Assembly (NCBI GenBank): GCA_964631575.1
Contig: CAZVYD010000002.1
Location: 1-60,330 of the forward strand
From: an uncultured Candidatus Bathyarchaeia archaeon
GTDB lineage: Archaea; Thermoproteota; Bathyarchaeia; 40CM-2-53-6; JALHTG01
DNA length: 60,330 nucleotides
Direction of reading: 5' to 3'
Below the pieces are notes generated by a model. It saw only the letters and a list, made by a program, of their open reading frames with translations, did no database searches and had not been told where the DNA came from. A program made the position numbers and the translations under genes. Positions 2,593 to 46,898 of the stretch are shown one piece after another (position 1 is the stretch's first letter; each line of letters begins with the position of its first letter).

Positions 2593-3005
2593 TGATAGAA
2601 GCAGACATATTGTATGCCCACGTGAAGAGAAATGACTGGTTGAAGCCAGCGGCGGACAAGTTCCTGCGCCGCATAGTTCACGGAGATTTTGGGATTGTGT
2701 TGACGAGCAGAGAGGTGCTACACGAACTCTACTACGTCTCGATGGAGGAAGGCGTCACATTGGAGTCATACATCTCAAGGCTGGCGGCACTGACGGCGCT
2801 ACCAAACCTGAAGTATATCGATACGACATCTGAGATCGACATACTTGCAGCAACGCTGATGAAACAGTTCAAGCTCACTTCAATCTTCGACGCCTACTAT
2901 GCAGCAACGGCCCTCAACGCGGTTCCGGATCACATAATAGCCTCAACAGACGAAGTCTTCGACAAAGTGACAGGAGTCAAGCGAGTAGATCCACGAACCT
3001 TCTAG
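2589..3005 (+). CDS. vapC: PIN-domain toxin (VapC-like ribonuclease)
   Basis: 138 aa. It has an acidic residue near the N-terminus (EADILYA), a mid-protein acidic position, and the C-terminal FDAYYAATAL...ASTDEVF pattern typical of PIN domains. It is translationally coupled to the AbrB-like gene. Confidence 0.7.
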   Translation: MMIEADILYAHVKRNDWLKPAADKFLRRIVHGDFGIVLTSREVLHELYYVSMEEGVTLESYISRLAALTALPNLKYIDTTSEIDILAATLMKQFKLTSIFDAYYAATALNAVPDHIIASTDEVFDKVTGVKRVDPRTF

Positions 3006-6428: not shown

Positions 6429-6526
6429 TGGTGCGGCCGCCGGGATTTGAACCCGGGTCACCGGCTCTTCCCGAGGATAGAACTCTTGGGGGGCCGACGT
6501 CTTAGACCAGGCTGGACTACGGCCGC
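6429..6526 (-). tRNA. Intron-containing tRNA, best read as tRNA-Gly(CCC), with encoded CCA
   Basis: The reverse complement reads GCGGCCG-TA-GTCC AGCCTGGTCTA AGAC-G-TCGGC-CCCCCA[20-nt intron]A-GCCGG-TGAC-CCGGG-TTCAAAT-CCCGG-CGGCCGC-ACCA. The acceptor and T arms pair perfectly, and the D-loop carries AGCCTGG. The anticodon assignment depends on the intron model. Confidence 0.85.
6467..6486 (-). other. 20-nt tRNA intron at the canonical 37/38 position (BHB motif)
   Basis: The intron is AGAGUUCUAUCCUCGGGAAG. The central helix pairs C33-C35 with GGG (plus a C32.A mismatch). The 5' bulge is CA|A and the 3' bulge is AG|A. The distal helix is GAG/CUC with a 7-nt loop. Confidence 0.7.
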
Positions 6527-6700: not shown

Positions 6701-8922
6701 CTACGCTTTGTCGATGAAATCTTCGATCTTGGATGGTTCGAGCGGAAGCCCCTTCCTCTTTCTTATGTCTTGGATTACCTGTCCGATCATCGACGCCGGC
6801 ACTGGGGACCAATGTGAGAATTCCAGACCCCAGAAGGCACGTCCTGCGGTAGCACTTCTAAGGACCTCGGAGAGATCGAATGTCTCTGCCGTCGGGATCT
6901 CTCCAACCACGTAGACCAGATGCCCTCTCTGTTCGACTGAGATTACTCTCCCCCTTTTCTGCGATATGACGCTCGTGACGGCTCCGAGCAGGTCTGGTGG
7001 AATCTTCGCTGTAATCTTCTGAACCGGCTCCAGTAGGCATGGATCTGCAGACAAGAAGGCTGCGAAGAATGCTCTTCGGGTCATGGGCATTATCTGTGCA
7101 GGCCCTCGATGTACCGGATCCTCATGCAACGAAATGTCCACGATCTTCACCTTGAGGCCTCTGATCTGCTCGTACGCCAGCGGTCCTTCCTTTATGGACC
7201 ACTCATACCCAGAGATGATCGTGTCCTTAGCCTCTTGCACATACTGTGCTCCTTTGGTCACATCCGTAAGGATGTTGCAGCTCTCATCAATACTCCACAC
7301 TCCTCTTGCATCTTCCGCCTCCCAACCCTTATCCCTGAGAATCCTCGCTAAAGCATGTCGATCCATGTACTCTCCGACATCCCCTCGCCTTATCATGTCA
7401 ATAATCTCATCAGGTAGAGGTTCGACCATGATCTTAATCCGGTTATGCCTATTGGGGGACTTACCTTCAAAGGGCCCAGCTAGCTTTCTAATACTCTCCC
7501 TATAGATGACAATCGGCTGCGAGGTCACTATTTCCAAGCCAGTCTTGCTAATCAGCGTCGTGGCAATCTCAAGGTGAAGGGTTCCCATACCTGAAATCAG
7601 GTATTCCCCAGTCTCTTCGTTGATTGTTGTTACAAGGTTGGGATCTTCGATTGAAAGTTTTCTCAACGTGTCCACGAGCCTAGGAAGATCGCGGCTGAAC
7701 TTCGGCTCAACCGCCATCGTCACCACTGGCTCGGTGACGTAGTGAACCGCCTCGAACGGCGCAACATCCTTGGATGTTGCCAACGTCTCTCCAGCTCTGG
7801 CCGCCTCTAGACCGAGCAGGGCAGGGATATTGCCCGCAGTTATCTCTCCGATAATCTCCCGATATGGGCCCATATACACGCAGACCTGCTGAACTCTTGA
7901 CTCAACTCTGGCACCAACAAGGTGAATCATTTGTCCCTCCTTGATCGTGCCTGAGAACAGTCGTCCTGTGGCAACAACACCGGCCTGCGGGTCGACTACA
8001 ATATTCGTCACGCACATGATCGTTGGCCCATTGTCGTCGCACTCCACCATGGCTTTGCCAAATTCCGAATCCACATCTCCCTTCCATATCTTCGGTATCC
8101 GATATTTCTGGGCCACATGCGGGGGAGACATGGCTTCGACCGCCATATCCAGTATCGCCTCATGAAGTGGACTCTTCTCCTTCAACTCCTCAACCTTGTT
8201 CTGCACGTAAGCGTCCAAAACATCGGAGAATTTGACTCCACGGTTCTGGGCGATGGCGGAGGTGAACCCCCAGCGATCTTTCGCCGAGCCCATAGCAACC
8301 GTATTCGTAGCGAAACTTACCTTCCACTTTTCCCTGAACTCTGGCTCAGCGTAGAGGTCTATCAGCGCGTTGAAGTCCTTTATTATACGAGCGATTTTCT
8401 CTTGAATTTGATCAGGGGTAAGCTTCAACTCTTTGATCAAACGATCGATCTTGTTCACATAAAGTACCGGTCTGACTCTCTCCTCCAAAGCTTGGCGAGT
8501 AACAGTCTCAGTCTGAACCATTACCTCCTCGACAGCGTCTACGACAACGACAGCGCCGTCGATGGCTCTGAGAGATCTCGTCACCTTACCTGAAAAATCA
8601 ACGTGCCCCGGCGTATCTATCAGATTGATAACGTATGAGACGCCGCTCTTCTCGTGGAGAAGGCTGACGTTTGCAGCCTTTATCGTCATCTGTCTCTTCT
8701 GCTCTTCCTCCATGAAGTCAAGCGCCAGCGCAGTCCCTGCCACAGACGGCGAAAGGAGTCCTGACGAGGCAAGCAGAGAATCCGACATGGTAGTCTTGCC
8801 ATGGTCAACGTGAGCGATAATGCCAATGTCTTCCGGATGCAGTCTCTCGACTACATCTTTCGGATCTGATCCTTGTTGGCAATTATCTTAATGATCTCAC
8901 CTGTAGTCTTGAATCGTGGCAA
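6701..8922 (-). CDS. fusA: Translation elongation factor aEF-2, interrupted by a 29-nt intervening sequence (exon 1 at 8859-8922, exon 2 at 6701-8829)
   Basis: Exon 2 encodes ...IGIIAHVDHGKTTMSDSLLASSG..., DTPGHVDF, NKIDR and the diphthamide-site HEDPVHRGPAQ. Exon 1 starts at TTG 8922 and reads MPRFKTTGEIIKIIANKDQIR. The joined length is 2193 nt (730 codons plus stop). Confidence 0.85.
8830..8858 (-). other. Putative BHB-like intron within the aEF-2 coding sequence
   Basis: These 29 nt (AGAUGUAGUCGAGAGACUGCAUCCGGAAG) separate two reading frames. There is a 9-bp hairpin with a GAGA loop, and a 4-bp helix UCCG/CGGA flanked by AAA and AGA bulges. See the findings. Confidence 0.65.
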
Positions 8923-8929
8923 TTTTCTT

Positions 8930-8934
8930 CCTCC
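8930..8934 (-). promoter_or_regulatory. Shine-Dalgarno-like GGAGG upstream of the aEF-2 TTG start
   Basis: The minus strand reads tcggtcGGAGGaagaaaaTTG, with a 7-nt spacer to TTG 8922. Confidence 0.5.
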
Positions 8935-24065: not shown

Positions 24066-24448
24066 TTCGACTCTTCCTTGGGAGTCTCCGGAGTCTTCTG
24101 TCTCCTTCTGGCTCTCTTCTTGGGCTCCGTGACCGCCTCAACAGCCTTCGGCGCTTCAACGAGGCCTAGCTCCGTCGCGACGGCACTGGGCGCCGCGCCT
24201 TTCGTCGCGCGTCTTGCAACTTCTCCAAGCTTTGTCTGCGCTGTGTACGCACCTCCGGCAAACCTGTATCCGCACTTCTTGCAGTACCATATCCCAACTG
24301 CTTCTCTCCTAACCGCCATGACATGACATTGAGGACATTCGCTGTATCTTCTCAACGCCCTGACAATCTCAGCGTATCTTTTCCTCGCAACTGTTCCATA
24401 CCTCGGCCCGAAACTGCCTGCCTGTCCTACCTTCTTTGTCCTTGTCAC
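24062..24448 (-). CDS. rpl37ae: Ribosomal protein eL43 (L37Ae) with a basic C-terminal extension
   Basis: KKVGQAGSFGPRYG plus the zinc ribbon CPQC...CKKCG. About 35 extra Lys/Arg/Pro/Glu-rich residues follow the conserved core. Confidence 0.9.
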   Translation of the reverse strand: MTRTKKVGQAGSFGPRYGTVARKRYAEIVRALRRYSECPQCHVMAVRREAVGIWYCKKCGYRFAGGAYTAQTKLGEVARRATKGAAPSAVATELGLVEAPKAVEAVTEPKKRARRRQKTPETPKEESK

Positions 24449-25263
24449 GTCTGGGCAGCCTCAATGATCCTGGAGCGTATTTCTGATCCTTTCGAGAGTG
24501 CGATCGCCACACCCTGCTTGACCTCTTCGATTGTGAGTGCCTCAGCTCCTCCTTTCTGCATGGCACATATTCGACCGTCCTTGTCGGAGATAACGGTCAG
24601 CCTCGCACTCATCACCTGCTCCTCGTCGAGTGATGGGTCAACAACAAGAGATTTGCCGATCTTTGCTAAGGTAACTGCAACCGGGTGGTTCTGGATTGGG
24701 AGATTCTTGAGCTCAGCCCTGTAGACGACTTCTCCGTTCTGTACTTCGTATTCGTTCATCTTTGCGCTCAGCAGAGCAGCGAGTGAGGCGATTGAGGAGG
24801 CATCTATCAGGTTGCCATCATGATCGAGCACATATACGTCAACGAAAACCACGAACACTTTCTTCCTAGGTTGGATACACAGCTCCTTCAGATTGATGGC
24901 CTTTGATTCTCTGATGCCCCTGTCCACAACTCTTGCAAGCTCAATGGCGTTCTCATTTGGCGGACCCGGCTCGAAGGACGGCGATGCGAGAGGAACAAGC
25001 TCTGCATTCACGGAGAGTACTCCCTCATCAGGGGTGTCAGGAAAGGGCTCTCCCGCTTCCACCTTCACACCTACCATGACCTTCGTTTTGCCCAAGTTGA
25101 TCAAAGCTGACCCACATGCTCTCTCTATCAGACCGATCTCAAGCTTCATTTCTCTGAAGTCGTGAAGCCCTCGGTCATCTATCCTCTTTCCAAGGGTAAG
25201 CATATCCACAACGGTTTTTTGCGCTATGGCTGCAACGGGCGGCAAATGTGGTGTCGAAGACAC
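24445..25263 (-). CDS. rrp42: Exosome complex subunit Rrp42
   Basis: RNase PH-like fold (RIDDRGLHDFREMKLEIG..., GSALINLGKTKVMVGVK). It lies downstream of rrp41 in the superoperon. Confidence 0.85.
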   Translation of the reverse strand: MSSTPHLPPVAAIAQKTVVDMLTLGKRIDDRGLHDFREMKLEIGLIERACGSALINLGKTKVMVGVKVEAGEPFPDTPDEGVLSVNAELVPLASPSFEPGPPNENAIELARVVDRGIRESKAINLKELCIQPRKKVFVVFVDVYVLDHDGNLIDASSIASLAALLSAKMNEYEVQNGEVVYRAELKNLPIQNHPVAVTLAKIGKSLVVDPSLDEEQVMSARLTVISDKDGRICAMQKGGAEALTIEEVKQGVAIALSKGSEIRSRIIEAAQT

Positions 25264-25266
25264 TGT

Positions 25267-26049
25267 CTACTCCTCCTCTCCCTTTGCCTTGTCACTTTTT
25301 TCTTCTACCTCTTCCTTTATGGCAAGGTACCTCTCTTTCAACACAGCTTTCTGTTGTTCGTGAATTGTGTGGCACGTTTTCACGGCGATGTCAAAGCCTT
25401 TCTCGAATTCCTCGTGAGTCAGGGTTCCATCCATCTGTATCAAAGTGACAAGGTTGGATTTGGGCATGACTGCAACGGGCAAGTCCGCTTCGCCTTGCTT
25501 GTCCTCGGCATCAGAGAGGTCCAGGGCGATCTGGCCAGCTATCTTTCCCACGGCTGTGGCTGCGACGAGTCCTCGCATCGGAATACCCGCATCAGCTAGC
25601 GCCAAGGAGGCGCCTGTTATTCCGGCGCACCTAGTTCCCCCATCAGACTGTAGAACTTCAATGAACAGGTCGATTGTTGTGCGAGGATAATACTCCGAGA
25701 GGACTGCAGGCTCAAGGGCTTCTCTTATGACTTTAGAGAGCTCCTGCTCCCTACGGGACGGAGCAGGCGACTTTCGTTCAGGCGTGGAAAAGGGCGCCAT
25801 GTGGTATCGACATCTCAAGACGGCTCGGTGTGGCAACGCAATATGCTTTGGATGTGCTTCTCTGGGACCGTAAACAGCCACCAGAATCCTGTTCTTGCCT
25901 TGCTCAATGTAAGCTGAGCCATCAGCCTTGTCGAGAATTCCAACTTTCATCTTGATCGGGCGGAATTCATCCAGTCTTCTTCCATCAATTCTCAAACCAG
26001 TCTCGTTTATCAGCTCGATAGGTTCCTCTTGCATGTTCAATCTATTCAC
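25267..26049 (-). CDS. rrp41: Exosome complex exonuclease Rrp41
   Basis: GLRIDGRRLDEFRPIKMKVG, DGSAYIEQGKNRILVAVYGP, MAPFST.ERK and DGGTRCAGITGASLALADAGIPM (phosphorolytic site). Confidence 0.9.
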   Translation of the reverse strand: MNRLNMQEEPIELINETGLRIDGRRLDEFRPIKMKVGILDKADGSAYIEQGKNRILVAVYGPREAHPKHIALPHRAVLRCRYHMAPFSTPERKSPAPSRREQELSKVIREALEPAVLSEYYPRTTIDLFIEVLQSDGGTRCAGITGASLALADAGIPMRGLVAATAVGKIAGQIALDLSDAEDKQGEADLPVAVMPKSNLVTLIQMDGTLTHEEFEKGFDIAVKTCHTIHEQQKAVLKERYLAIKEEVEEKSDKAKGEEE

Positions 26050-26734
26050 CTTTCATCTTGGTTCGAAGCATGACCTGTATGCGGTCGGTCAATCCCCGAG
26101 TATGGGCCTCACGTTCGATCATTCTTATCGCCTGCATGGCTGCATTCTCCGAATCTGGAGAACGGCCTGATACTAGGATGATTCCGTTCTGGCCGACAAT
26201 TATGTTTGCTCCCGTCCCCTTCTTGAGAAGGCTTATCATAGAACCTTTCCTTCCTATGAGCCTTGGAACCTTTGTAGGAGACAATTCAATTATCCTCCCA
26301 CTCGCTATCTTTCCCAAGTCCGGTCCCTTGGCAGTAATCAGAGGGTCTCGGGTTCTGTCAAATGCCAAGACCTCGGATACAACAAGATCACCTACGTCGA
26401 ACATTCTACTCAGATCCATCCTGCCCCGGGGACCTCGGTGCCCAAACGTTTCTGAGGCAGGCAGAAGAGCTGGGTAAGGGGCATTAATGTCAACAATCCA
26501 TCCAGACATGCCAATATCAACGATTCTTCCTACGACAACATCTCCTACATGAGGGATGTAGCGTCCCTTGAGCGGAATCACGCTAAGCCTATCGCCAACT
26601 ATCTCGACTACGCCGACCCTCGAAGAATATATTCTCTCACCGTCTCGGTGAGTATTCTCTCCTGACAGATGCTTCCCTTCAGCTAGAATCTCACCTGGGG
26701 CGACCAGCTGCTTCTTTTCGACATACAAGGTCAA
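26042..26734 (-). CDS. rrp4: Exosome RNA-binding subunit Rrp4 (S1 plus KH)
   Basis: N-terminal VAPGEILAEG, S1 segment PHVGDVVVGRIVDIGMSGWIVDI and KH segment RLIGRKGSMISLLKKGTGANIIVGQNG. TTG start. Confidence 0.85.
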   Translation of the reverse strand: MTLYVEKKQLVAPGEILAEGKHLSGENTHRDGERIYSSRVGVVEIVGDRLSVIPLKGRYIPHVGDVVVGRIVDIGMSGWIVDINAPYPALLPASETFGHRGPRGRMDLSRMFDVGDLVVSEVLAFDRTRDPLITAKGPDLGKIASGRIIELSPTKVPRLIGRKGSMISLLKKGTGANIIVGQNGIILVSGRSPDSENAAMQAIRMIEREAHTRGLTDRIQVMLRTKMKGE

Positions 26735-39986: not shown

Positions 39987-42332
39987 TTGTCTAAGAAAGC
40001 GCTCCAGCTGAAAGTGGAGGAACTGAGAACAGAAATAGCTCTTCTCAAGAATTTGGAGATTACTGTCGGAAGAATCTATGAGGAAACATGGTCCGAAAAG
40101 ATTGGGCCGACACCGTTCCCTTCACTCCTTGATTTGAGGGAGTGGGATCTGAAGCTTCTAGAGCGCTACCAGCCATTCTACATGCCCTTCTGCGACCTGT
40201 GCTGCCTTTGCACCACGGGAAAGTGTGATCTGACCAAGCAGAAGCGCGGAGGATGTGGATTAGACATTTCCGGACAGCAATCTCGGATGGTACTCATAAC
40301 AGAGTGCATAGGGGCTTCGACGCACATAGCACATGCGAGGCATCTTGTAGATCACCTGATAGAGAAACATGGGCATGACTGTTCAATCAATGTGGGGCAG
40401 AACATAGAGGTGGAGGCTCCCATCATCAGGACTGTTTGCGCCATAAGGCCAAAGACTCTCGAAGACTTGGAAGACGTCTTAGAGTATGCTGAATCTCAGA
40501 TCACAGGCCTGTTAGCAGCTACAGCCACCGGACAAGAGGAAAGCAACATCGACTTTGAATCAAAGATCCTGCACGCGGGGATGATTGATCATGTGGCCAT
40601 GGAGGCCGCGGACATCGCACAAGTTTCGGCAATGGGCTTTCCAAGAGCTGACCCGGATGCTCCCCTTGCTGAGATTGGGTTTGGAACAGTAGATGTCTCA
40701 AAGCCTACGATCCTTGTGATTGGACACAACGTTCTGCCAGCAGCAGCGATCATGGATTACATAGACAGTCAGAAGATGTACGGTCAGATCGAGGTTGCCG
40801 GAATCTGCTGCACGGCACATGACGTGACAAGATACAACCCTAAAGCCAAGATTGTTGGGCCGCTTTCATGGCAATTGAGATTCATTCGAAGCGGGCTTCC
40901 AGACCTGATAGTTCTCGATGAGCAGTGCATACGAGCAGACACTCTGATCGAAGCTCAGAAGATCAAGGCACCGGTCATTGTGACCAGTGACAAGAACTGC
41001 GCTGAATTGGCAAACCGAACTGCTGACGATATCAATGAGATTGTAGCCGATCTTGTTTCGGGAAAGGCTCTTGGGGTCTTGATTCTGAACCCTGAAAAGG
41101 TTGGGGAAGTCGCTGTACGAGCTGTAAGGGAAGTGGCACCAAAGCGAAGTAAATTCAAGAACTTACCGAACCAAGACAGATTAGTCGCGATGGCAAAGAA
41201 GTGCAGCGGCTGCAGTGAATGTAGAAGAGCCTGCCCCAATGATCTGCTCATTCCTGAAGCAATGGCTTTCGCTGCCAGAGGCAATGTTGCGCCTCTTTCT
41301 GAACTCCTAAACGGCTGTATTGGATGCGCAAAATGCGAATCTGCATGTCCTAACAGGGTGCCAGTCCATAGCCTCATCGTTTCAGCTGCAGGCGAAGCTC
41401 TCTCACAAGAAAGATACAAGATTCGGGTTGGTCGAGGAGGAATCCAAGATGTTGAGATTCGAAAGGTAGGAAGACCTATAGTGCTTGGGGAGATTCCTGG
41501 CATTGTGGCTTTTGTCGGGTGTTCAAACTATCCGCATGGAGGCTGCGAAGTTGCGGAGATGGCTGAGGAATTTCTGAAGCGACGCTTCATCGTGACATCT
41601 TCTGGCTGTGCAGCTATGTCGATTGCCATGCACACGAACGAGAATGGGAAGAACATCTACGAGAGCTACCCGGGCGCATTCGATGCTGGATGCATCTCGA
41701 ATGTGGGCTCATGCGTGGCGAACTCTCATGTGGCGGGAGCAGCCATGAAAATCGCCAGCATATTCGCAAGACGCGATCTGCGAGGTAACTACGAAGAAGT
41801 CGCTGACTATGTCCTGAACAGGGTCGGAGCTGTTGGTGTGGCTTGGGGAGCCATGTCTCAGAAAGCTGCTGCAATCGCTGGCGGGTGCTGGCGCCTAGGG
41901 ATCCCCATTGTGGTGGGACCTCACGGCATGAAGTATCGGAGGATGCTTCTTGGCAGAAAGGATCGTGAGAATGATTGGTACGTCTACGATGCGCGAACAG
42001 GAGCCAAGACGTATGTTGGTCCAGCGCCTGAACACCTGTTCTACGCCGCAGAAACGAAAGAGGAGGCAATTGTAATGATTGCCAAGCTGTGCATGCGTCC
42101 CAACGATACTTCAAAGGGTCGAGCAATAAAGCTAACTCACTACGTCGACCTACACAAACGCTTGTTCGGCGTGGTTCCTGATGATATTCACTTGTTTGTG
42201 CGCAGAGTCAGCGATATTCCCATGACCATGAAGAACGAAATCGAGAAGATACTCGTCCAGAAGGAATGGAAGGAGAGAATCATCCCCGATCCAACATTGT
42301 TGACACGTCTGGTAAGGAGGAGGAAAGAGTGA
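39987..42332 (+). CDS. cdhA: Acetyl-CoA decarbonylase/synthase alpha subunit (CODH catalytic subunit, archaeal type)
   Basis: CDLCCLCTTGKCDL cluster motifs and an inserted 2x[4Fe-4S] ferredoxin domain (CSGCSECRRACP, CIGCAKCESACP). The C-cluster region includes GCSNYPHGG. The TTG start is the first start codon after the in-frame stop. Confidence 0.9.
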   Translation: MSKKALQLKVEELRTEIALLKNLEITVGRIYEETWSEKIGPTPFPSLLDLREWDLKLLERYQPFYMPFCDLCCLCTTGKCDLTKQKRGGCGLDISGQQSRMVLITECIGASTHIAHARHLVDHLIEKHGHDCSINVGQNIEVEAPIIRTVCAIRPKTLEDLEDVLEYAESQITGLLAATATGQEESNIDFESKILHAGMIDHVAMEAADIAQVSAMGFPRADPDAPLAEIGFGTVDVSKPTILVIGHNVLPAAAIMDYIDSQKMYGQIEVAGICCTAHDVTRYNPKAKIVGPLSWQLRFIRSGLPDLIVLDEQCIRADTLIEAQKIKAPVIVTSDKNCAELANRTADDINEIVADLVSGKALGVLILNPEKVGEVAVRAVREVAPKRSKFKNLPNQDRLVAMAKKCSGCSECRRACPNDLLIPEAMAFAARGNVAPLSELLNGCIGCAKCESACPNRVPVHSLIVSAAGEALSQERYKIRVGRGGIQDVEIRKVGRPIVLGEIPGIVAFVGCSNYPHGGCEVAEMAEEFLKRRFIVTSSGCAAMSIAMHTNENGKNIYESYPGAFDAGCISNVGSCVANSHVAGAAMKIASIFARRDLRGNYEEVADYVLNRVGAVGVAWGAMSQKAAAIAGGCWRLGIPIVVGPHGMKYRRMLLGRKDRENDWYVYDARTGAKTYVGPAPEHLFYAAETKEEAIVMIAKLCMRPNDTSKGRAIKLTHYVDLHKRLFGVVPDDIHLFVRRVSDIPMTMKNEIEKILVQKEWKERIIPDPTLLTRLVRRRKE

Positions 42333-42874
42333 TGAGCAAACCTGAGCCTTGGCAGAAAGCTGAGGTTCCGGGTCCAATGAAGGCACTGGTGATATCCAAA
42401 CCGGAGGCCGTAGTCGCGATGATCAAGAGTGCGAAGAGGCCACTCTTCATAGTTGGGCCGGAATCGGCGGAGCGAGAGATCGCTGGAGAAAAAGAGATCG
42501 ACCAGCTGATTCAAATAGCCAAAGCCGGAAAAATACCGATTGTCGCAACAAGCCGAGCAGTCATCGATTTCACTAGACGAAACTATGATCCCGCTTTATG
42601 GATGCCTGCCGTTGACATTGCCAATAGACTGCGAGATCCGAAGTGGATGGGTGTGAAGGGGGAAGGGCAGCACGATCTTGCCCTCTTCGCAGGAATGCAG
42701 TATTATGTCGAATGGTTGTTGCTATCCGGTTTGAAGCATTTTGGAGATGTGAGAACTGTTAGCTTTGGCAGATTCTATCAACCTCACGCCAATTGGTCAT
42801 TCCCAAATCTAGACGAGAAAGAGTGGGAGCAGAATCTTAGGGCTGTACGGAATGGGTTTGGGAGGGTCAAGTAG
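42332..42874 (+). CDS. cdhB: Acetyl-CoA decarbonylase/synthase epsilon subunit
   Basis: MSKPEPWQKAEVPGP...MIKSAKRPLFIVGP, about 180 aa. ATG 42332 overlaps the cdhA stop, and GGAGG lies upstream. Confidence 0.85.
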   Translation: MSKPEPWQKAEVPGPMKALVISKPEAVVAMIKSAKRPLFIVGPESAEREIAGEKEIDQLIQIAKAGKIPIVATSRAVIDFTRRNYDPALWMPAVDIANRLRDPKWMGVKGEGQHDLALFAGMQYYVEWLLLSGLKHFGDVRTVSFGRFYQPHANWSFPNLDEKEWEQNLRAVRNGFGRVK

Positions 42875-44268
42875 TGTCGATGTTCAGCGACATGCCTGTC
42901 GATGTCGGCGTCATATATGAAGGGGAGAGAATCAGGAAGCAAGACATGCATGTGGAATTTGGTGGTCTCGATGTTCCAACAAAGTTCGAACTTGTAAGAG
43001 CTCGTCCTGCCGACAAGGTGGAAGACGGCAATGTGCAGGTCATTGGCCCAGACATCAAGGACCTCAAGGAAGGAGAAAGCTACCCCCTCGGGATATTTGT
43101 AGAGGTTGCAGGAAAGCAGGTTGAGCCCGACCTAGAGGGAGTTTTCGAAAGACGAATCCATGCATACTGTAACTACGTAGAAGGACTGATGCATCTCAAC
43201 CAACGATATGACATCTGGTTGCGGTTAAGCAAGAAATCGCTTCAGAAAGGTTTGAACTCGTTTGCGATATTGGGGAAGATACTAATGAGGCTTTTCAAGA
43301 GCGAGCTTCCGATAATCGAGAGGATTCAGATGACGTTCATCACTGATTCCTCAACTGTTGAGAGGATGCTTTCTGAGGCAAGAAAGGTCTACGATGCCAG
43401 AGATGCTCGAGCACGGGGGCTTAGAGACGAAGAGGTGGACTCCTTCTATGGTTGTGTGTTGTGTCAGTCGTTCGCTCCAGCTCATGTCTGTGTGATAGCT
43501 CCACAGAGGTACGCAAATTGCGGGGCGATTAGCTGGTTCGAAGGAAGAGCTTCAGCGAGAATAGATCCGAAAGGGCCAGTGTTCAGAATCGAGCGCGGCG
43601 GGATCTTGGATCCCCTTCGGGGCGAATTCTCTGGTGTTAACGAGGCTGTGAAGGAAAAATCACTTGGCGAGGTGACCCGAGTGTATCTCTACTCCGCGTT
43701 TGGCTTTCCCCACACATCATGCGGATGCTTTGAGGCAACGGCTTTCTACATACCGGAGGTTGAAGGCTTCGGAATCGTGCAGAGGGATTTTGTGGGGCCA
43801 ACCGTGAATGGACTTCCATTCTCAACGATGGCTGACTCAACAGCCGGTGGAAGGCAAATAGATGGCTTCCACGGCCTCTCCATCGAGTATATGAGGTCTC
43901 CCAAGTTCTTACAAGCTGATGGCGGTTGGGAACGCATCGCATGGATACCCTCGAAGCTGAAAGAGAGAGTCAGGGAGTTCATACCGCAAGACTTAGTGGG
44001 GAGAATACCCACAGAAAACGATGTCAAGAACGTTGACGAACTGAGGAGCTTCCTTCAGGCTAGAAATCATCCCTTGGCTAGGCAAAGGGCCAAATCTCCA
44101 ATTGAGGTAGTTGCAGAAGCAAAGACAGAGCCTCAGACCTCGCGGGTCATTCAGGCTAAGGGACTGCAGGTTGAATCGATGAGCATAGGCCCCTATAAGA
44201 TAATACTTGAAGACGCGAAGATAACTGCAAGAAGACTTGTCATCAAAGCGGTAGAGAAGAAAGAGTGA
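42874..44268 (+). CDS. cdhC: Acetyl-CoA decarbonylase/synthase beta subunit (A-cluster acetyl-CoA synthase)
   Basis: SFYGCVLCQSFAPAHVCVI and FPHTSCGCFEA (A-cluster Cys ligands). GTG start overlapping the cdhB stop. Confidence 0.9.
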   Translation: MSMFSDMPVDVGVIYEGERIRKQDMHVEFGGLDVPTKFELVRARPADKVEDGNVQVIGPDIKDLKEGESYPLGIFVEVAGKQVEPDLEGVFERRIHAYCNYVEGLMHLNQRYDIWLRLSKKSLQKGLNSFAILGKILMRLFKSELPIIERIQMTFITDSSTVERMLSEARKVYDARDARARGLRDEEVDSFYGCVLCQSFAPAHVCVIAPQRYANCGAISWFEGRASARIDPKGPVFRIERGGILDPLRGEFSGVNEAVKEKSLGEVTRVYLYSAFGFPHTSCGCFEATAFYIPEVEGFGIVQRDFVGPTVNGLPFSTMADSTAGGRQIDGFHGLSIEYMRSPKFLQADGGWERIAWIPSKLKERVREFIPQDLVGRIPTENDVKNVDELRSFLQARNHPLARQRAKSPIEVVAEAKTEPQTSRVIQAKGLQVESMSIGPYKIILEDAKITARRLVIKAVEKKE

Positions 44269-45485
44269 ATGAAAGGTTGGCCAAAGAGGGCGAGAAAAAG
44301 GCCCGTCTCAAGCTCAGTTCAAAGATCCTTGAGCTTTTGCGAAAGCACAGCGAAGTGGAACTGGAAAATGTGGAAATTGACGTGGGAGACCTTGAGATAT
44401 GGCTTCAGCCATCGGCGGAAGGTATTCAAATTTCACAGGTTGTCTCTCCCGCGACAAGAGTCAGGCCTGCCGAGACTCTGAAGACTGAATTTGTGCGCCC
44501 CCTGAGACAATACCCTGGATCCATCGTCGAAGTTAAGCTAGGTGCAACGAAAGCTGAGGGGGGCACACGTGGAAGAACCTTTGTTCTTGGCGGAGAGAAG
44601 ACTCCCCCATTCTATCTTTCGGAGGAAACGATGCCTCACCTCCCCGTCATTGCGCTTGATGTCTTTGATACGGAGATAAGACTTGCCAAAGCAGTGAAGA
44701 CTCATGTTGAAGAGGTTCTAAATGACCCTGCTGAGTGGGCCAAGCTTTCGGTTGAGAGATTCGGAGCTGACATGATCAATCTTCACCTCATCAGTATCGA
44801 TCCGTTGATCAAAGATACATCGCCTGCGACGGCAGTGAATACCGTCGAGAAGGTCCTCCAAGCTGTGGATGTCCCACTCACAATCGGAGGATGCGGAGAT
44901 CCGCAGAAGGATCTAAGGGTTTTCGAGAAGGTTGCAGAGGCTACGAAAGGAGAGCGGATACTCTTCAACTCTGTAACCCTTGACATGGACGTGAAGAAGA
45001 CAGCTGAACTCATCAGAAGATCTGGTCATGCAGCACTTGCGTTCACTCCAATGGACATGAATAAAGCTCGTGAGCTCAACAGAAAACTCTACGAGTACTT
45101 ACCACGCGAAGACATTGTGATAGACACAACGACAGCTGCCCTCGGCTATGGTCTAGATTATGCGTTCTCGATCATGGAGCGGACAAGACTGGCAGGACTC
45201 ATGGGCGACCAAGAGCTTCAGCATCCTATGGCGTCGGGCGCAAGCAACGCTTGGGCGGCGAGGGAGGCCTGGATGAACCTAGCGCCCGAATGGGGCCCAC
45301 GGGAACTCAGAGGCCCAATGTGGGAAGTGGTGACTGCACTTACGCTTCTCTTGGCGGGCGTCGACTACTTCATGATAATGCACCCGGCGGCTGCAAGAAC
45401 TGTGCGGGACGTTACTGCCCAGCTCGTCTCACGCTGTCAGGAAGATCCTGGGAATTGGGTAAGTTGGGTAACCACGAAACTCTAG
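44265..45485 (+). CDS. cdhD: Acetyl-CoA decarbonylase/synthase delta subunit (corrinoid protein small subunit)
   Basis: 406 aa. It holds the TIM-barrel-type CdhD position between cdhC and cdhE, and contains segments such as LTIGGCGDP and GADMINLHL. Confidence 0.8.
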   Translation: MNERLAKEGEKKARLKLSSKILELLRKHSEVELENVEIDVGDLEIWLQPSAEGIQISQVVSPATRVRPAETLKTEFVRPLRQYPGSIVEVKLGATKAEGGTRGRTFVLGGEKTPPFYLSEETMPHLPVIALDVFDTEIRLAKAVKTHVEEVLNDPAEWAKLSVERFGADMINLHLISIDPLIKDTSPATAVNTVEKVLQAVDVPLTIGGCGDPQKDLRVFEKVAEATKGERILFNSVTLDMDVKKTAELIRRSGHAALAFTPMDMNKARELNRKLYEYLPREDIVIDTTTAALGYGLDYAFSIMERTRLAGLMGDQELQHPMASGASNAWAAREAWMNLAPEWGPRELRGPMWEVVTALTLLLAGVDYFMIMHPAAARTVRDVTAQLVSRCQEDPGNWVSWVTTKL

Positions 45486-45494
45486 GGGAGAGCC

Positions 45495-46898
45495 ATGGCC
45501 ACGAGAGAACTCAGTCCCATCGACGTATACACGCTGCTTCCAAAGACAAACTGCAAGCTATGCGGCGAAGAGAACTGCATGGCTTTTGCAACTAAGATAG
45601 TGAATAGAGTTGTCACACTTGAGCTTTGTCGCCCGTTGTTGGAGGAGCAACATGCCTCAAACTTGGCAAGGCTACAAGAGATGCTCAGACCACCCGTGAG
45701 AGAAATCATCTTAGGAGTGGGCAAGAGAGCAGTGAGGATCGGCGGAAAACTCGTGATGTATCGTCACCAATTCGCGTACTTTAACCCCACTGCAATCGCA
45801 GTTGACATCGACGACGAATCATCAAATGAGGAGATTGAACGAAGAATCAGCAGTGTCAAGTCTCTTTCCTACGATTACATCGGACAGAGATTGAAGCTGG
45901 ATATGGTAGCTCTCAGATGCACTTCGAATGACCCAAAAAGGTTTGGAGCAATCGCCAAGAAAGTTGCTGAACTAACTGAATTGCCCATCGTGCTTTGTTC
46001 ATTAAACCCAGGCATGTTGGAAGCAGCTTTAGCCGTCATGGGAAAAGCGAGGCCACTCATATACGCCGCCACCTCTGAGAACTGGAGTGAGGTGGCGAAA
46101 CTCGCGATTACGTATCGTTGTCCCGTGGCTGCATCGGCACCAGGGGACTTGACCACACTGAGTTCACTGTCGGCGATGCTGCAGGAAAAAGGTGTGGAGG
46201 ACATTGTACTTGATCCGGGAACCTTTTTTGGCGAGGGCCTCGGTCAGACCGTAGACAACTTCACGATGCTGCGTAGAACCGCGTGCGAGGAGGGAAATAG
46301 GGTTCTTGCGTTTCCCCTGATGGGCGTTCCGATGAGCGTATGGTCACAAAGGGGAGAGCTGCCCGAGGTCACAAAGTGGAAAGAATCGTGTCTCATGTCA
46401 ATGCTAATCACGCGATACGCTGACCTTCTGGTGGTTCATAGCCTTGACGGGTGGGTTCTGCTCCCGAACTTGGTACTAAGGCAGAACCTGTACACAGATC
46501 CCAGGAAGCCAGTTGCAGTTGACCCGGGGCTGAGGTCACTTGGAAAACCTACGCAGAAATCCCCGCTACTCTGTACCGCGAACTTCGCTTTAACCTACTA
46601 CACTGTCCTATCTGATATCGAAGCCGCAGCAATAGATTGCCACATGCTTGTCATAGACACGGAGGGGATATCTGTCGAGAGCGCAGTTGCCGGAAGGAAA
46701 CTAACTGCAGACAAGGTAGCGGAGGCAATCAAGACGTTTAAGGTCTCAGAGAAAGTCAGCCACAGGACTCTGATAATTCCGGGAAGAGCGGCCCGACTCA
46801 GCGGAGAGATAGAAGAGGCGACCGGATGGAAGATTCTGGTAGGCCCGATCGACTCGTCAGGAATCTCAAAGTTCCTGCAGGAAAAATGGAAGTCATAA
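45495..46898 (+). CDS. cdhE: Acetyl-CoA decarbonylase/synthase gamma subunit (corrinoid iron-sulfur protein large subunit)
   Basis: N-terminal 4Fe-4S motif KTNCKLCGEENCMAFA. 467 aa. Confidence 0.9.
   Translation: MATRELSPIDVYTLLPKTNCKLCGEENCMAFATKIVNRVVTLELCRPLLEEQHASNLARLQEMLRPPVREIILGVGKRAVRIGGKLVMYRHQFAYFNPTAIAVDIDDESSNEEIERRISSVKSLSYDYIGQRLKLDMVALRCTSNDPKRFGAIAKKVAELTELPIVLCSLNPGMLEAALAVMGKARPLIYAATSENWSEVAKLAITYRCPVAASAPGDLTTLSSLSAMLQEKGVEDIVLDPGTFFGEGLGQTVDNFTMLRRTACEEGNRVLAFPLMGVPMSVWSQRGELPEVTKWKESCLMSMLITRYADLLVVHSLDGWVLLPNLVLRQNLYTDPRKPVAVDPGLRSLGKPTQKSPLLCTANFALTYYTVLSDIEAAAIDCHMLVIDTEGISVESAVAGRKLTADKVAEAIKTFKVSEKVSHRTLIIPGRAARLSGEIEEATGWKILVGPIDSSGISKFLQEKWKS

Follow-up and report, generated by a model that had tools for sequence, protein, structure and literature searches.

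The gene for translation elongation factor aEF-2 in this Bathyarchaeia genome is, very probably and judging from its sequence, interrupted by a 29-nucleotide (nt) bulge-helix-bulge (BHB) intron, which lies in the Asn22 codon, directly before the GTP-binding P-loop. In the literature that we searched, cbf5 has since 2002 been the sole archaeal gene with an endonuclease-spliced intron inside its coding region (PMC7714728), in agreement with the statement in a preliminary description of this DNA that an intron in EF-2 was unreported; by that literature, EF-2 is the second protein-coding gene found with a tRNA-type intron at such a location. Protein-coding BHB introns would then not be confined to cbf5 and would extend to an essential, universal translation factor in a globally abundant lineage.

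The split gene and the fold of its insert

The EF-2 features described here are on the minus strand of the 60,330-nt stretch that was analyzed (the window). Exon 1 (8859 to 8922) begins with a TTG start codon, 7 nt downstream of a Shine-Dalgarno-like GGAGG that was read from the sequence (8930 to 8934), and comprises 21 codons (MPRFKTTGEIIKIIANKDQIR) and one further base, with which the Asn22 codon begins. It is followed by the intron (8830 to 8858; AGAUGUAGUCGAGAGACUGCAUCCGGAAG), the excision of which gives DQIRNIGIIAHVDHGKTT and an open reading frame (ORF) of 730 amino acids (aa), and by exon 2 (6701 to 8829), which supplies the other 2 bases for Asn22 and encodes the P-loop and the remainder of the protein up to the TAA stop codon at 6701. 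The reading frames were as the preliminary description had given them: the short ORF starting at TTG 8922, preceded by GGAGG, translates to MPRFKTTGEIIKIIANKDQIRKM and ends at 8851 with an in-frame UAG (8851 to 8853) that is located inside the intron, and the long EF-2 ORF is devoid of a usable upstream start, with ATG, GTG, and TTG all absent from its frame between the stop codon at 8890 to 8888 and the ATG at 8788. From the P-loop (NIGIIAHVDHGKTT) onward, aEF-2 is encoded in a different frame from exon 1, without a start codon there. Deletion of 8858 to 8830, as originally proposed, creates the junction CGA A/AC AUU GGC (slashes mark cuts or junctions throughout) and a frame of 64 + 2129 = 2193 nt including the stop codon, and in silico excision following the BHB cutting rule restores QIRN-GIIAHVDHGKTT and the full ORF in the window.

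The predicted spliced junction, CAGAUCCGAA/ACAUUGGCAUUAUC, lacks the 29 nt, and the spliced product is predicted to release the tryptic peptide NIGIIAHVDHGK (or NMGIIAHVDHGK), preceded by an arginine; translation reading through the insert would include LHPEDIGIIAHVDHGK. In a tblastn search, the spliced protein matched the window at 8830 to 6704 with 99.9% identity, and the corresponding window protein (P0227) is recorded with the EF-2 domain set GTP_EFTU, EFG_III, EFG_IV, and EFG_C. Exon 1 itself varies mostly at third codon positions, with 0.42 differences per site among the homologous exons of 33 genomes compared to 0.14 and 0.12 at the first and second positions, which indicates that it evolves under coding selection.

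The central helix, the AAA bulge, and the 9-bp hairpin previously drawn for the insert were present in the minimum free energy structure of the minus strand from 8810 to 8895, which has a z-score of -4.4 and was not equaled by any of 200 shuffled sequences. The central helix pairs UCCG (8861 to 8864), which is exonic and overlaps the codons for Ile20 and Arg21, with the intronic CGGA (8832 to 8835). On its 5' side, the bulge AAA (8858 to 8860) contains the predicted cleavage site between 8859 and 8858, and the second predicted cleavage, between 8830 and 8829, falls in the 3' splice-site triplet AGA (8829 to 8831). The intronic hairpin h' (8836 to 8857), consisting of 9 bp and a GAGA loop, stacks on the central helix. 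According to the definitions of h and h' in PMC7714728, the latter requiring at least 2 Watson-Crick pairs, the window contains both the 4-bp central helix between the cleavage sites and a 3-nt 5' bulge closed by h' on the intron side; the bulge at the 5' splice site measures 3 nt in all 35 intron-bearing genomes. The strict hBHBh' motif, on the other hand, is absent, as the adjoining exonic outer helix h amounts to only 0 to 1 bp in 35 of 35 genomes. With the exonic closing helix missing beside the 3' triplet, the motif is an HBh' and was rightly called a relaxed rather than a strict BHB. A more distant closing helix (UGCCAA-UUGGCA), also part of the initial proposal, does form in the window but is not conserved: in relatives, exon-exon pairing was no better than in shuffled sequences, and duplex energies placed it at positions that differ between genomes.

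Loosely defined BHB-like patterns commonly arise by chance, with 16 matches in the window versus 8.8 in shuffled sequences even when the inner helix was required to have 9 bp or more. The chance that predicted cuts coincide with the sole frame-restoring deletion is roughly 1e-4 per position, as estimated from the match rate in the window, and this coincidence of cut and frame recurs in 34 other genomes.

Conservation and covariation among relatives

An alignment of fusA across relatives, a check suggested beforehand, located the insert at the Asn22 codon in 33 other Bathyarchaeia genomes, all MAGs, in which it measures 25, 27, 28, 29, 30, 31, 32, or 44 nt. One Nitrososphaerales MAG (L065) carries an insert with its junction 1 nt further 3', and the insert is absent from the 38 other archaeal EF-2 genes examined. 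A fixed geometric rule (4-bp helix, 3-nt bulges, cut after the second bulge nucleotide) produced exactly one frame-restoring excision in 33 of the 35 genes, yielding Q[IV]RN-G--AHVDHGKTT. In the remaining two (L008 and L012), a single C-U mismatch interrupts the inner helix, and the rule holds for them when read by hand; cutting after the second bulge nucleotide thus restores QIRN-GIIAH in 35 of 35 genes. Insert lengths modulo 3 are 0, 1, and 2 in 8, 14, and 13 genomes, respectively, each with an in-frame stop codon. In 32 of the 35 introns, this stop is a UAG at an identical codon position; the other 3 have a UGA or UAA 0 to 3 codons further on. The last intron nucleotide can be G, A, U, or C, so that the unspliced downstream frame would give D, N, Y, or H at the position of the asparagine. 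Splicing always yields AAY there, and the asparagine is common to all 38 intronless genes.

Not all interruptions are at Asn22. In one genome (L004), the intron at that site is absent and a 42-nt insert separates the His codon of AHVDHGK from the Val codon; it has a GCCC-GGGC helix and bulges AU/A and AG/G, i.e., the same cutting rule applied at a second site. Separately, true inteins were observed in other Bathyarchaeia EF-2 genes, at GK/TT.

The helices of the insert also vary in a manner expected of paired RNA. Among 30 Bathyarchaeia sequences, the central helix was paired in 100% of cells, and in the Nitrososphaerales MAG it has undergone a compensated replacement (CAGG-CCUG). Inner-helix pairing reached 90.3% of cells, against 24 to 48% in slid registers and with none of 500 shuffles attaining the observed value. 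Double-sided changes occurred in 5 of the 7 counted inner pairs (25 cells), a count that exceeds the number of independent events, as the Bathyarchaeia sequences share ancestry. RNAalifold independently gave the same consensus, ((((...((((..)))))))), and, as read from these alignments, the inner helix shows compensatory changes and covaries in the BHB register. The pairing partner of the U in the UAG varies among introns, and GNNNUAG is conserved more than pairing demands.

Weighing of alternative explanations

A frame break in a single MAG-derived contig would ordinarily suggest an assembly error, and an assembly or sequencing indel, or else a decaying pseudogene, was considered as an explanation. 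However, the occurrence of the equivalent insert in 34 other genomes, the work of many projects using short as well as long reads, and the retention of the 29 nt in five independent assemblies of near-identical strains (different samples and assemblers) leave this explanation a negligible probability. Once the insert is removed, 31 of the 35 genes contain a complete ORF of >690 aa, the exceptions being two that run off their contigs (L007 and L042), one of 516 aa (L014), and one without a recognizable exon 1 start (L053). Furthermore, EF-2 protein identities across the intron-bearing clade are 72 to 97%, and tblastn with the spliced protein, the pseudogene check that had been asked for, found no second EF-2 copy in the 60-kb window. 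Ribosomes might instead bridge the insert without splicing, by programmed frameshifting, stop codon readthrough, or a hop over the hairpin as in T4 gene 60, where a stop codon and hairpin separate coding segments and matched take-off and landing codons are needed in frame. A stop codon followed closely by a stable hairpin does resemble known bypass and frameshift signals, and cbf5 introns were formerly taken for frameshifts (PMC2738675). Still, we consider such recoding very unlikely, since the three length classes would require -1 or +1 frameshifting or readthrough depending on the genome and, with an in-frame stop in each, no single recoding event explains them all. The products would moreover gain 8 to 14 nonconserved residues before the P-loop, with D, Y, or H replacing the universal Asn. 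As for a hop, the AAG at 8859 to 8857 in the window is matched by an AAG at 8832 to 8830, but landing there resumes the wrong frame; in contrast to gene 60, EF-2 lacks in-frame matched codons and has an insert of variable length. The covariation of the helices as RNA structure, in exact BHB register, likewise speaks against recoding.

Another possibility, in our view improbable, is that exon 1 is not used and that translation initiates downstream, at Met23 in the subclade with AU/AUG or at a noncanonical codon, giving a protein that lacks its first 22 residues. Indeed, about one in three intron-bearing genomes has an in-frame AUG immediately after the 3' splice site (exon 2 starting AU/AUG), and gene callers begin the protein there (706 to 707 aa). 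The window and most other intron-bearing genomes, however, have AUU at this position, and no ATG, GTG, or TTG occurs before Met36, which is past the P-loop. Intron-bearing genomes have kept exon 1 together with its start codon and Shine-Dalgarno sequence, this exon evolves as coding sequence, its 21 N-terminal residues are present in 38 of 38 intronless archaeal EF-2 genes, and a downstream start would leave the upkeep of BHB geometry and covariation without a reason. Finally, the intron might be real but removed by something other than the splicing endonuclease EndA, e.g., an unknown ribozyme or another endonuclease recognizing the hairpin and UAG, a reading to which the missing exonic helix h and the conservation of GNNNUAG beyond pairing needs lend some weight. 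There is little likelihood of this, given that the junctions coincide with the BHB cut positions of EndA not only in the 35 genomes but also in L004 and a tRNA gene of the window, and that relaxed HBh' motifs form a recognized subclass of described substrates of (alpha-beta)2 and epsilon2 EndA (PMC6379350; PMC2738675). At 25 to 44 nt, the inserts fall short of the size of group I or II introns and have no match in Rfam. For the window in particular, a group I or II intron or an intein was ruled out, the insert being 29 nt long with stop codons and the only Rfam match in the window being the tRNA. What remains best supported is the reading of the preliminary description, namely that aEF-2 contains a relaxed BHB intron with obligatory splicing by an endonuclease; the fixed-rule junctions, the covariation, a coding exon 1, the independent assemblies, and the distribution of lengths modulo 3 all argue for it. 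Against this splicing model, we count the absence of exonic helix h (0 to 1 bp) and of a conserved distal exon-exon helix.

Putative splicing pathway, known parallels, and other loci

According to the splicing model, exonic UCCG would pair with intronic CGGA in the pre-mRNA, and the AAA bulge and stable intronic hairpin would complete the relaxed HBh' motif. EndA would then cut the 5' bulge after its second nucleotide (AA/A) and the 3' triplet at the symmetric position (AG/A), after which an RtcB-type RNA ligase would join CGA-A to AC-AUU, creating the Asn codon and bringing the 21 codons of exon 1 into the reading frame of the P-loop and the other 708 codons. On RNA that escapes splicing, ribosomes would halt at the conserved UAG after 23 codons, so that no aberrant EF-2 is made. 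Splicing in vivo, the identity of EndA and an RtcB-type ligase as the enzymes, and the role of UAG as a safeguard are what we infer from the genomic comparison. Cleavage between bulge nucleotides 2 and 3 is known from a crystal structure of EndA with RNA (PMC12397907).

The window itself offers a second putative substrate of this kind. A tRNA gene on the minus strand (6432 to 6526; Rfam RF00005, 47.9 bits), which ARAGORN missed, reporting no tRNA in the window, has 26 nt where the RF00005 model has 6. As the preliminary description had noted, a 20-nt insert in its anticodon loop (6467 to 6486) shows the same geometry, with bulges CAA and AGA; its central helix contains one C-A mismatch. A BHB intron in a tRNA implies that the tRNA-splicing machinery should exist in this organism; EndA or RtcB genes were not found among the 40 annotated ORFs of the window. 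Archaeal tRNA BHB introns in general, cut by EndA and joined by RtcB, share the 4-bp helix, 3-nt bulges, and cut after the second bulge nucleotide with the EF-2 intron, but in tRNAs helix h is provided by the anticodon stem, and the exons are kept together by the body of the tRNA, whereas in EF-2 h is absent and the exons are part of a translated mRNA.

The closest parallel is the cbf5 pre-mRNA intron of Crenarchaeota (Watanabe 2002; Yoshinari 2006; Yokobori 2009, PMC2738675), likewise a short insert in a coding region. The cbf5 introns span 16 to 44 bp, have a relaxed motif, and interrupt the codon of a catalytic residue (PMC2738675); those of EF-2 span 25 to 44 nt. Both break their gene at a catalytically essential motif, have lengths divisible by 3 in some cases and not in others, and are patchily distributed among relatives, which suggests gain and loss. 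The EF-2 intron is thus comparable to that of cbf5 in the way it works but constitutes a separate instance: the host gene differs, cbf5 introns are found in Desulfurococcales and Sulfolobales and EF-2 introns in Bathyarchaeia and one Nitrososphaerales genome, and only the EF-2 intron lies a mere 64 nt from the start codon and carries a nearly invariant in-frame UAG. Furthermore, cbf5 splicing was demonstrated by RT-PCR and in vitro, whereas that of EF-2 is deduced by comparison. The EF-2 case also includes a second insert site (that of L004) and a near-identical independent junction. The BHB intron in the 5' untranslated region of Haloferax volcanii HVO_1309 is another mRNA substrate of the archaeal splicing endonuclease but, located in an untranslated leader, leaves the reading frame uninterrupted, unlike the intron in EF-2 (PMC7714728).

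The position of the intron, 64 nt from the start codon, its nearly invariant in-frame UAG, and its retention across a large Bathyarchaeia clade led us to consider whether it could be a control point tying EF-2 synthesis to EndA and RtcB; in addition, BHB introns of independent origin (three junctions) are grouped together with inteins no more than about 12 codons from the P-loop, which might make this region a hot spot for intron gain. Both ideas are tentative and, on balance, rather doubtful. If true, the former would couple translation-elongation capacity to tRNA-maturation capacity and form an archaeal analogue of XBP1/HAC1 splicing; the latter might reflect gain via, e.g., reverse splicing. 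In XBP1 and HAC1 mRNA, IRE1 cuts a small intron (26 nt in XBP1) at stem-loops, an RtcB-type ligase joins the exons, and the frame changes. That system differs from the EF-2 intron in being eukaryotic and stress regulated and in its nuclease and RNA motif.

Spliced, cDNA-like copies from the intron-bearing clade were not found in protein collections, whether searched with the spliced N-terminus or with a profile of 21 spliced N-termini, nor was there a copy of the spliced junction ATCCGWAAYATNGGNATHATHGCNCAYGT from that clade in metagenome contigs, collections that may be without metatranscriptomes. The matches obtained belonged to bacterial GTPases, other archaeal lineages, and intronless Bathyarchaeia lineages, and these null results are not evidence against splicing. 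One candidate for a spliced-like copy (P0128/L081) was rejected, as it represents an intronless gene of the L002 type with an AGG Arg codon. In a collection of 5.8 billion proteins, exon 1 was missing from 112 of the 120 closest protein clusters, many of which also lacked the P-loop. Gene callers routinely overlook the intron in EF-2, a gene in wide use as a phylogenetic marker; gene calling in archaea therefore needs a BHB-aware step. The intron-bearing genes also provide a comparative data set for how mRNA can be spliced under the presumed coupling of transcription and translation.

A window-wide scan for other BHB-interrupted genes, in which ORFs were merged across candidate motifs, returned roughly 200 matches, mostly between neighboring genes, and could not tell real split genes from such matches. 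One further candidate for a split gene, dph6 (at about 11.8 kb), was rejected by comparison with relatives. This gene has no canonical start before its SGGKDS motif, and the homologous codon is UUG in L001 and CUG in the window, L007, and L003; dph6 therefore probably uses a CUG start rather than containing an intron.

A split aEF-2 reading frame around a bulge-helix-bulge element

The aEF-2 gene, encoded on the minus strand, is divided between two reading frames. From a TTG start at 8922, with GGAGG upstream (8934-8930), the frame of exon 1 reads MPRFKTTGEIIKIIANKDQIR-K-M-stop and ends at UAG 8853-8851, while the remainder of aEF-2, from ...EDIGIIAHVDHGKTTMSDS, sits in a different frame. Since this second frame contains no ATG, GTG or TTG from its stop (8890-8888) until ATG 8788, the mechanically called ORF (6701..8788, 695 amino acids [aa]) begins downstream of the P-loop. 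Excision of 8858-8830 creates the junction CGA A|AC AUU; the resulting protein of 730 aa has the universal IRNIGIIAHVDHGKTT motif and is encoded by 64 + 2129 = 2193 nt (stop counted). The split frame, its repair by removal of 29 nt and all coordinates of the preliminary description were thus confirmed against the sequence.

The minimum free energy fold of 8810-8895 (minus strand; -27.1 kcal/mol; z-score, -4.4) combines a UCCG/CGGA helix with an AAA bulge of 3 nt and a GAGA-capped hairpin of 9 bp. Loose bulge-helix-bulge (BHB)-like patterns are common (when the inner helix has 9 bp or more, 16 matches in the window versus 8.8 in shuffles), and the motif by itself therefore proves nothing. Only one deletion, however, restores the protein, and its ends are exactly the cuts set by BHB geometry, a coincidence whose chance we estimate, from the background rate of loose matches, at about 1e-4; in an EndA-RNA structure, cleavage occurs between bulge nucleotides 2 and 3 (PMC12397907).

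Conservation and covariation across archaeal EF-2 loci

A scan for EF-2, limited to one genome per species, returned 80 loci, with the nearest relatives all belonging to the Bathyarchaeia. The alignment of related fusA loci proposed in the preliminary description separated 38 loci in which the Arg21 codon is directly followed by AAY-AUH-GGN (N-I-G) from 34 (33 Bathyarchaeia and one Nitrososphaerales locus, L065) carrying 25 to 44 additional nucleotides within that Asn codon, with a covarying inner helix. A fixed BHB rule (a helix of 4 bp, a pair of 3-nt bulges, 3 bp or more of inner helix and a cut after bulge nucleotide 2) yielded exactly one frame-restoring excision in 33 of 35 sequences, the window included; L008 and L012, whose inner helix contains a single C-U mismatch, obeyed the rule on manual reading. 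Insert lengths (25, 27, 28, 29, 30, 31, 32 and 44 nt) fall into class 0 modulo 3 in 8 genomes, class 1 in 14 and class 2 in 13. The Asn is common to all 38 intronless genes, and splicing restores AAY in every case; read unspliced, the downstream frame codes D, N, Y or H at this position, since all four bases (G, A, U and C) occur as the final intron nucleotide. Differences in exon 1 are concentrated at third codon positions, with 0.42 per site compared to 0.14 and 0.12 at the others.

In a gap-free alignment of 30 Bathyarchaeia sequences (20 nt on each side of the variable loop), 90.3% of cells paired in the BHB register, versus 24 to 48% in registers slid by 1 to 3 columns. Two-sided changes were found in five of seven inner pairs (25 cells), and none of 500 shuffles reached the observed covariation. 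Independently, RNAalifold on the untrimmed sequences returned ((((...((((..(...)..)))))))), which comprises the central helix, 5' bulge and stacked inner helix. The central helix, whose 5' strand is coding, is almost invariant in Bathyarchaeia. Next to the motif, the flanking bases offer no more than one pair in any of the 35 sequences, and by the definitions quoted in PMC7714728 and PMC6379350 the element is a relaxed HBh' rather than a strict hBHBh' motif, as the preliminary description had it. Its more distant closing helix (UGCCAA/UUGGCA) did not hold up: over 30 nt to either side, optimal exon-exon pairing averaged -9.75 kcal/mol, close to the -8.83 kcal/mol of shuffled partners, and its position differed from genome to genome, so that the distal helix is peculiar to the window sequence.

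The Nitrososphaerales insert (L065, metagenome-assembled genome [MAG] contig JASMAB010000006.1, 1979-2029) is 28 nt long and lies in the same Asn codon, with a CAGG/CCUG central helix and a junction 1 nt further 3' (AGG AA|U versus CGA A|AY), a difference suggesting that, in this other class of archaea, the intron either was gained independently or has slid.

Alternative explanations, proposed splicing and precedents

With the frame restored by one rule in 35 genes and an inner helix that covaries, the insert is very probably an obligatory BHB-type intron, as originally proposed. Against an assembly artefact, the 29-nt insert persists in five contigs that differ in sample and assembler (JGI, ENA, Logan); the EF-2 they encode is 93 to 97% identical to that of the window, and every hairpin change is wobble compatible. 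Against decay into a pseudogene, 31 of the 35 genes have a complete ORF of >690 aa once the insert is taken out; of the others, L007 and L042 reach the contig end, L014 gives only 516 aa, and the start of exon 1 is not recognizable in L053. No second EF-2 copy, which had been named as a sign of a pseudogene, was found within the window. Recoding was rejected, as a single frameshift, readthrough or hop cannot fit inserts in all three length classes; its product would, moreover, gain nonconserved residues ahead of the P-loop and lose the invariant Asn. The only matched codon pair available for a hop in the window insert is AAG 8859-8857 and AAG 8832-8830, and landing on the latter would put the ribosome in the wrong frame.

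For the BHB-type intron, EndA would most likely cut the pre-mRNA at AA|A and AG|A, after which an RtcB-type ligase would join exon 1 to exon 2; ribosomes loading on unspliced RNA would read 23 codons and then terminate at the stop within the intron. In 32 of the 35 genes, UAG at one common codon provides this stop; the others have UGA or UAA at most three codons further on. The pairing partner of its U is G in 11 sequences and A in 5, and the U is unpaired in 11, a pattern suggesting that either the stop as such or some sequence-specific contact is under selection. A tRNA gene, probably Gly (CCC), at 6432-6526 (minus strand) went undetected by ARAGORN; as the preliminary description had noted, it contains an intron (20 nt) with matching bulges, CAA and AGA. 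A single C-A mismatch interrupts its BHB central helix, and the mature anticodon loop would be CCCCCAA, with C in place of the usual U at position 33. Given this BHB intron, the splicing machinery should exist in the organism; no EndA or RtcB gene was among the 40 annotated ORFs of the window. Only other lineages were matched when proteins were searched with the spliced N-terminus or with a profile built on 21 such N-termini and when metagenome contigs were scanned for the spliced junction, which is a null result and not evidence against splicing. The sole candidate spliced copy (protein cluster P0128, locus L081) was rejected as a member of the intronless L002 lineage.

The closest precedent, the crenarchaeal cbf5 intron, is 16 to 44 bp long, has a relaxed motif and splits a catalytic-residue codon (PMC2738675). 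The EF-2 intron works alike, but in a different, essential host gene and a different lineage. According to a 2020 study, no archaeal coding mRNA other than that of cbf5 had by then been reported to carry a BHB intron; the study added a 5'-UTR case of its own (PMC7714728). In agreement with the preliminary description, which knew of none in EF-2, no link between EF-2 and a BHB intron was found in full-text searches of open-access papers, though an earlier description elsewhere is possible; the parts consulted of the detailed archaeal EF-2 survey by Narrowe et al. do not raise one.

Evolution, annotation and neighboring genes

In a neighbor-joining tree of spliced proteins, all intron-bearing Bathyarchaeia genes form one clade, within which the intronless L002, the L030/L031/L033/L038 group and L004 are nested, a pattern like the gain-and-loss history of cbf5 (PMC2738675); the number of losses is tentative, as the tree is only distance based. 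L004 (hot-spring Bathyarchaeia MAG JAVZFM010000049.1, 167-420) lacks the Asn22 intron, but in its AHVDHGK segment an insert of 42 nt separates the His codon from the Val codon. This insert has a GCCC/GGGC helix, a hairpin of 9 bp and the bulges AU|A and AG|G; the fixed rule restores the frame here too. On these features, it is a second predicted BHB-intron site in EF-2, in one genome only. Inteins at GK|TT in the P-loop (GK|C...VVHN|TT) occur in other Bathyarchaeia, upstream of position 3001/1496 in L024, L035 and L037 and from 2721 in L106; three kinds of interruption thus cluster around the P-loop coding region.

In one subclade (L005, L006, L008, L010, L012 to L015, L020, L021 and L039), exon 2 starts AU|AUG GGC, which places an in-frame AUG (Met23) immediately 3' of the splice site; unspliced RNA could in principle give an EF-2 without residues 1 to 22.

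Public predictions miss the splice, and EF-2 of the intron-bearing clade is systematically misannotated. Exon 1 is missing from 112 of the 120 closest protein clusters in a public collection (P0227 to P0346): 65 begin at Met36, downstream of the P-loop, 37 within or just past the intron, and 10 are otherwise truncated. Some clusters, e.g., P0253 and P0261, translate the intron in the wrong frame. The eight with a full N-terminus all come from the two intronless lineages.

Elsewhere in the window, in the diphthamide synthase gene dph6 (PF01902; 11798-11830, plus strand, with the gene extending to 12499), the PP-loop (VLFSGGKDS) precedes the first in-frame ATG, GTG or TTG. An intron was rejected here, since relatives have UUG (L001) or CUG (L007 and L003, as in the window) at the homologous start codon, with GUGAGGA 4 nt upstream; dph6 probably starts at CUG 11813. 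The gene context is typical of Bathyarchaeia (39987-46898, plus strand; 24445-26734, minus strand) and includes a CODH/acetyl-CoA synthase cluster (Prismane/CdhC/CdhD), an exosome operon (Rrp4, Rrp41, Rrp42), SBDS, proteasome alpha and RNase P p30, with FEN-1 and DNA ligase adjoining EF-2.
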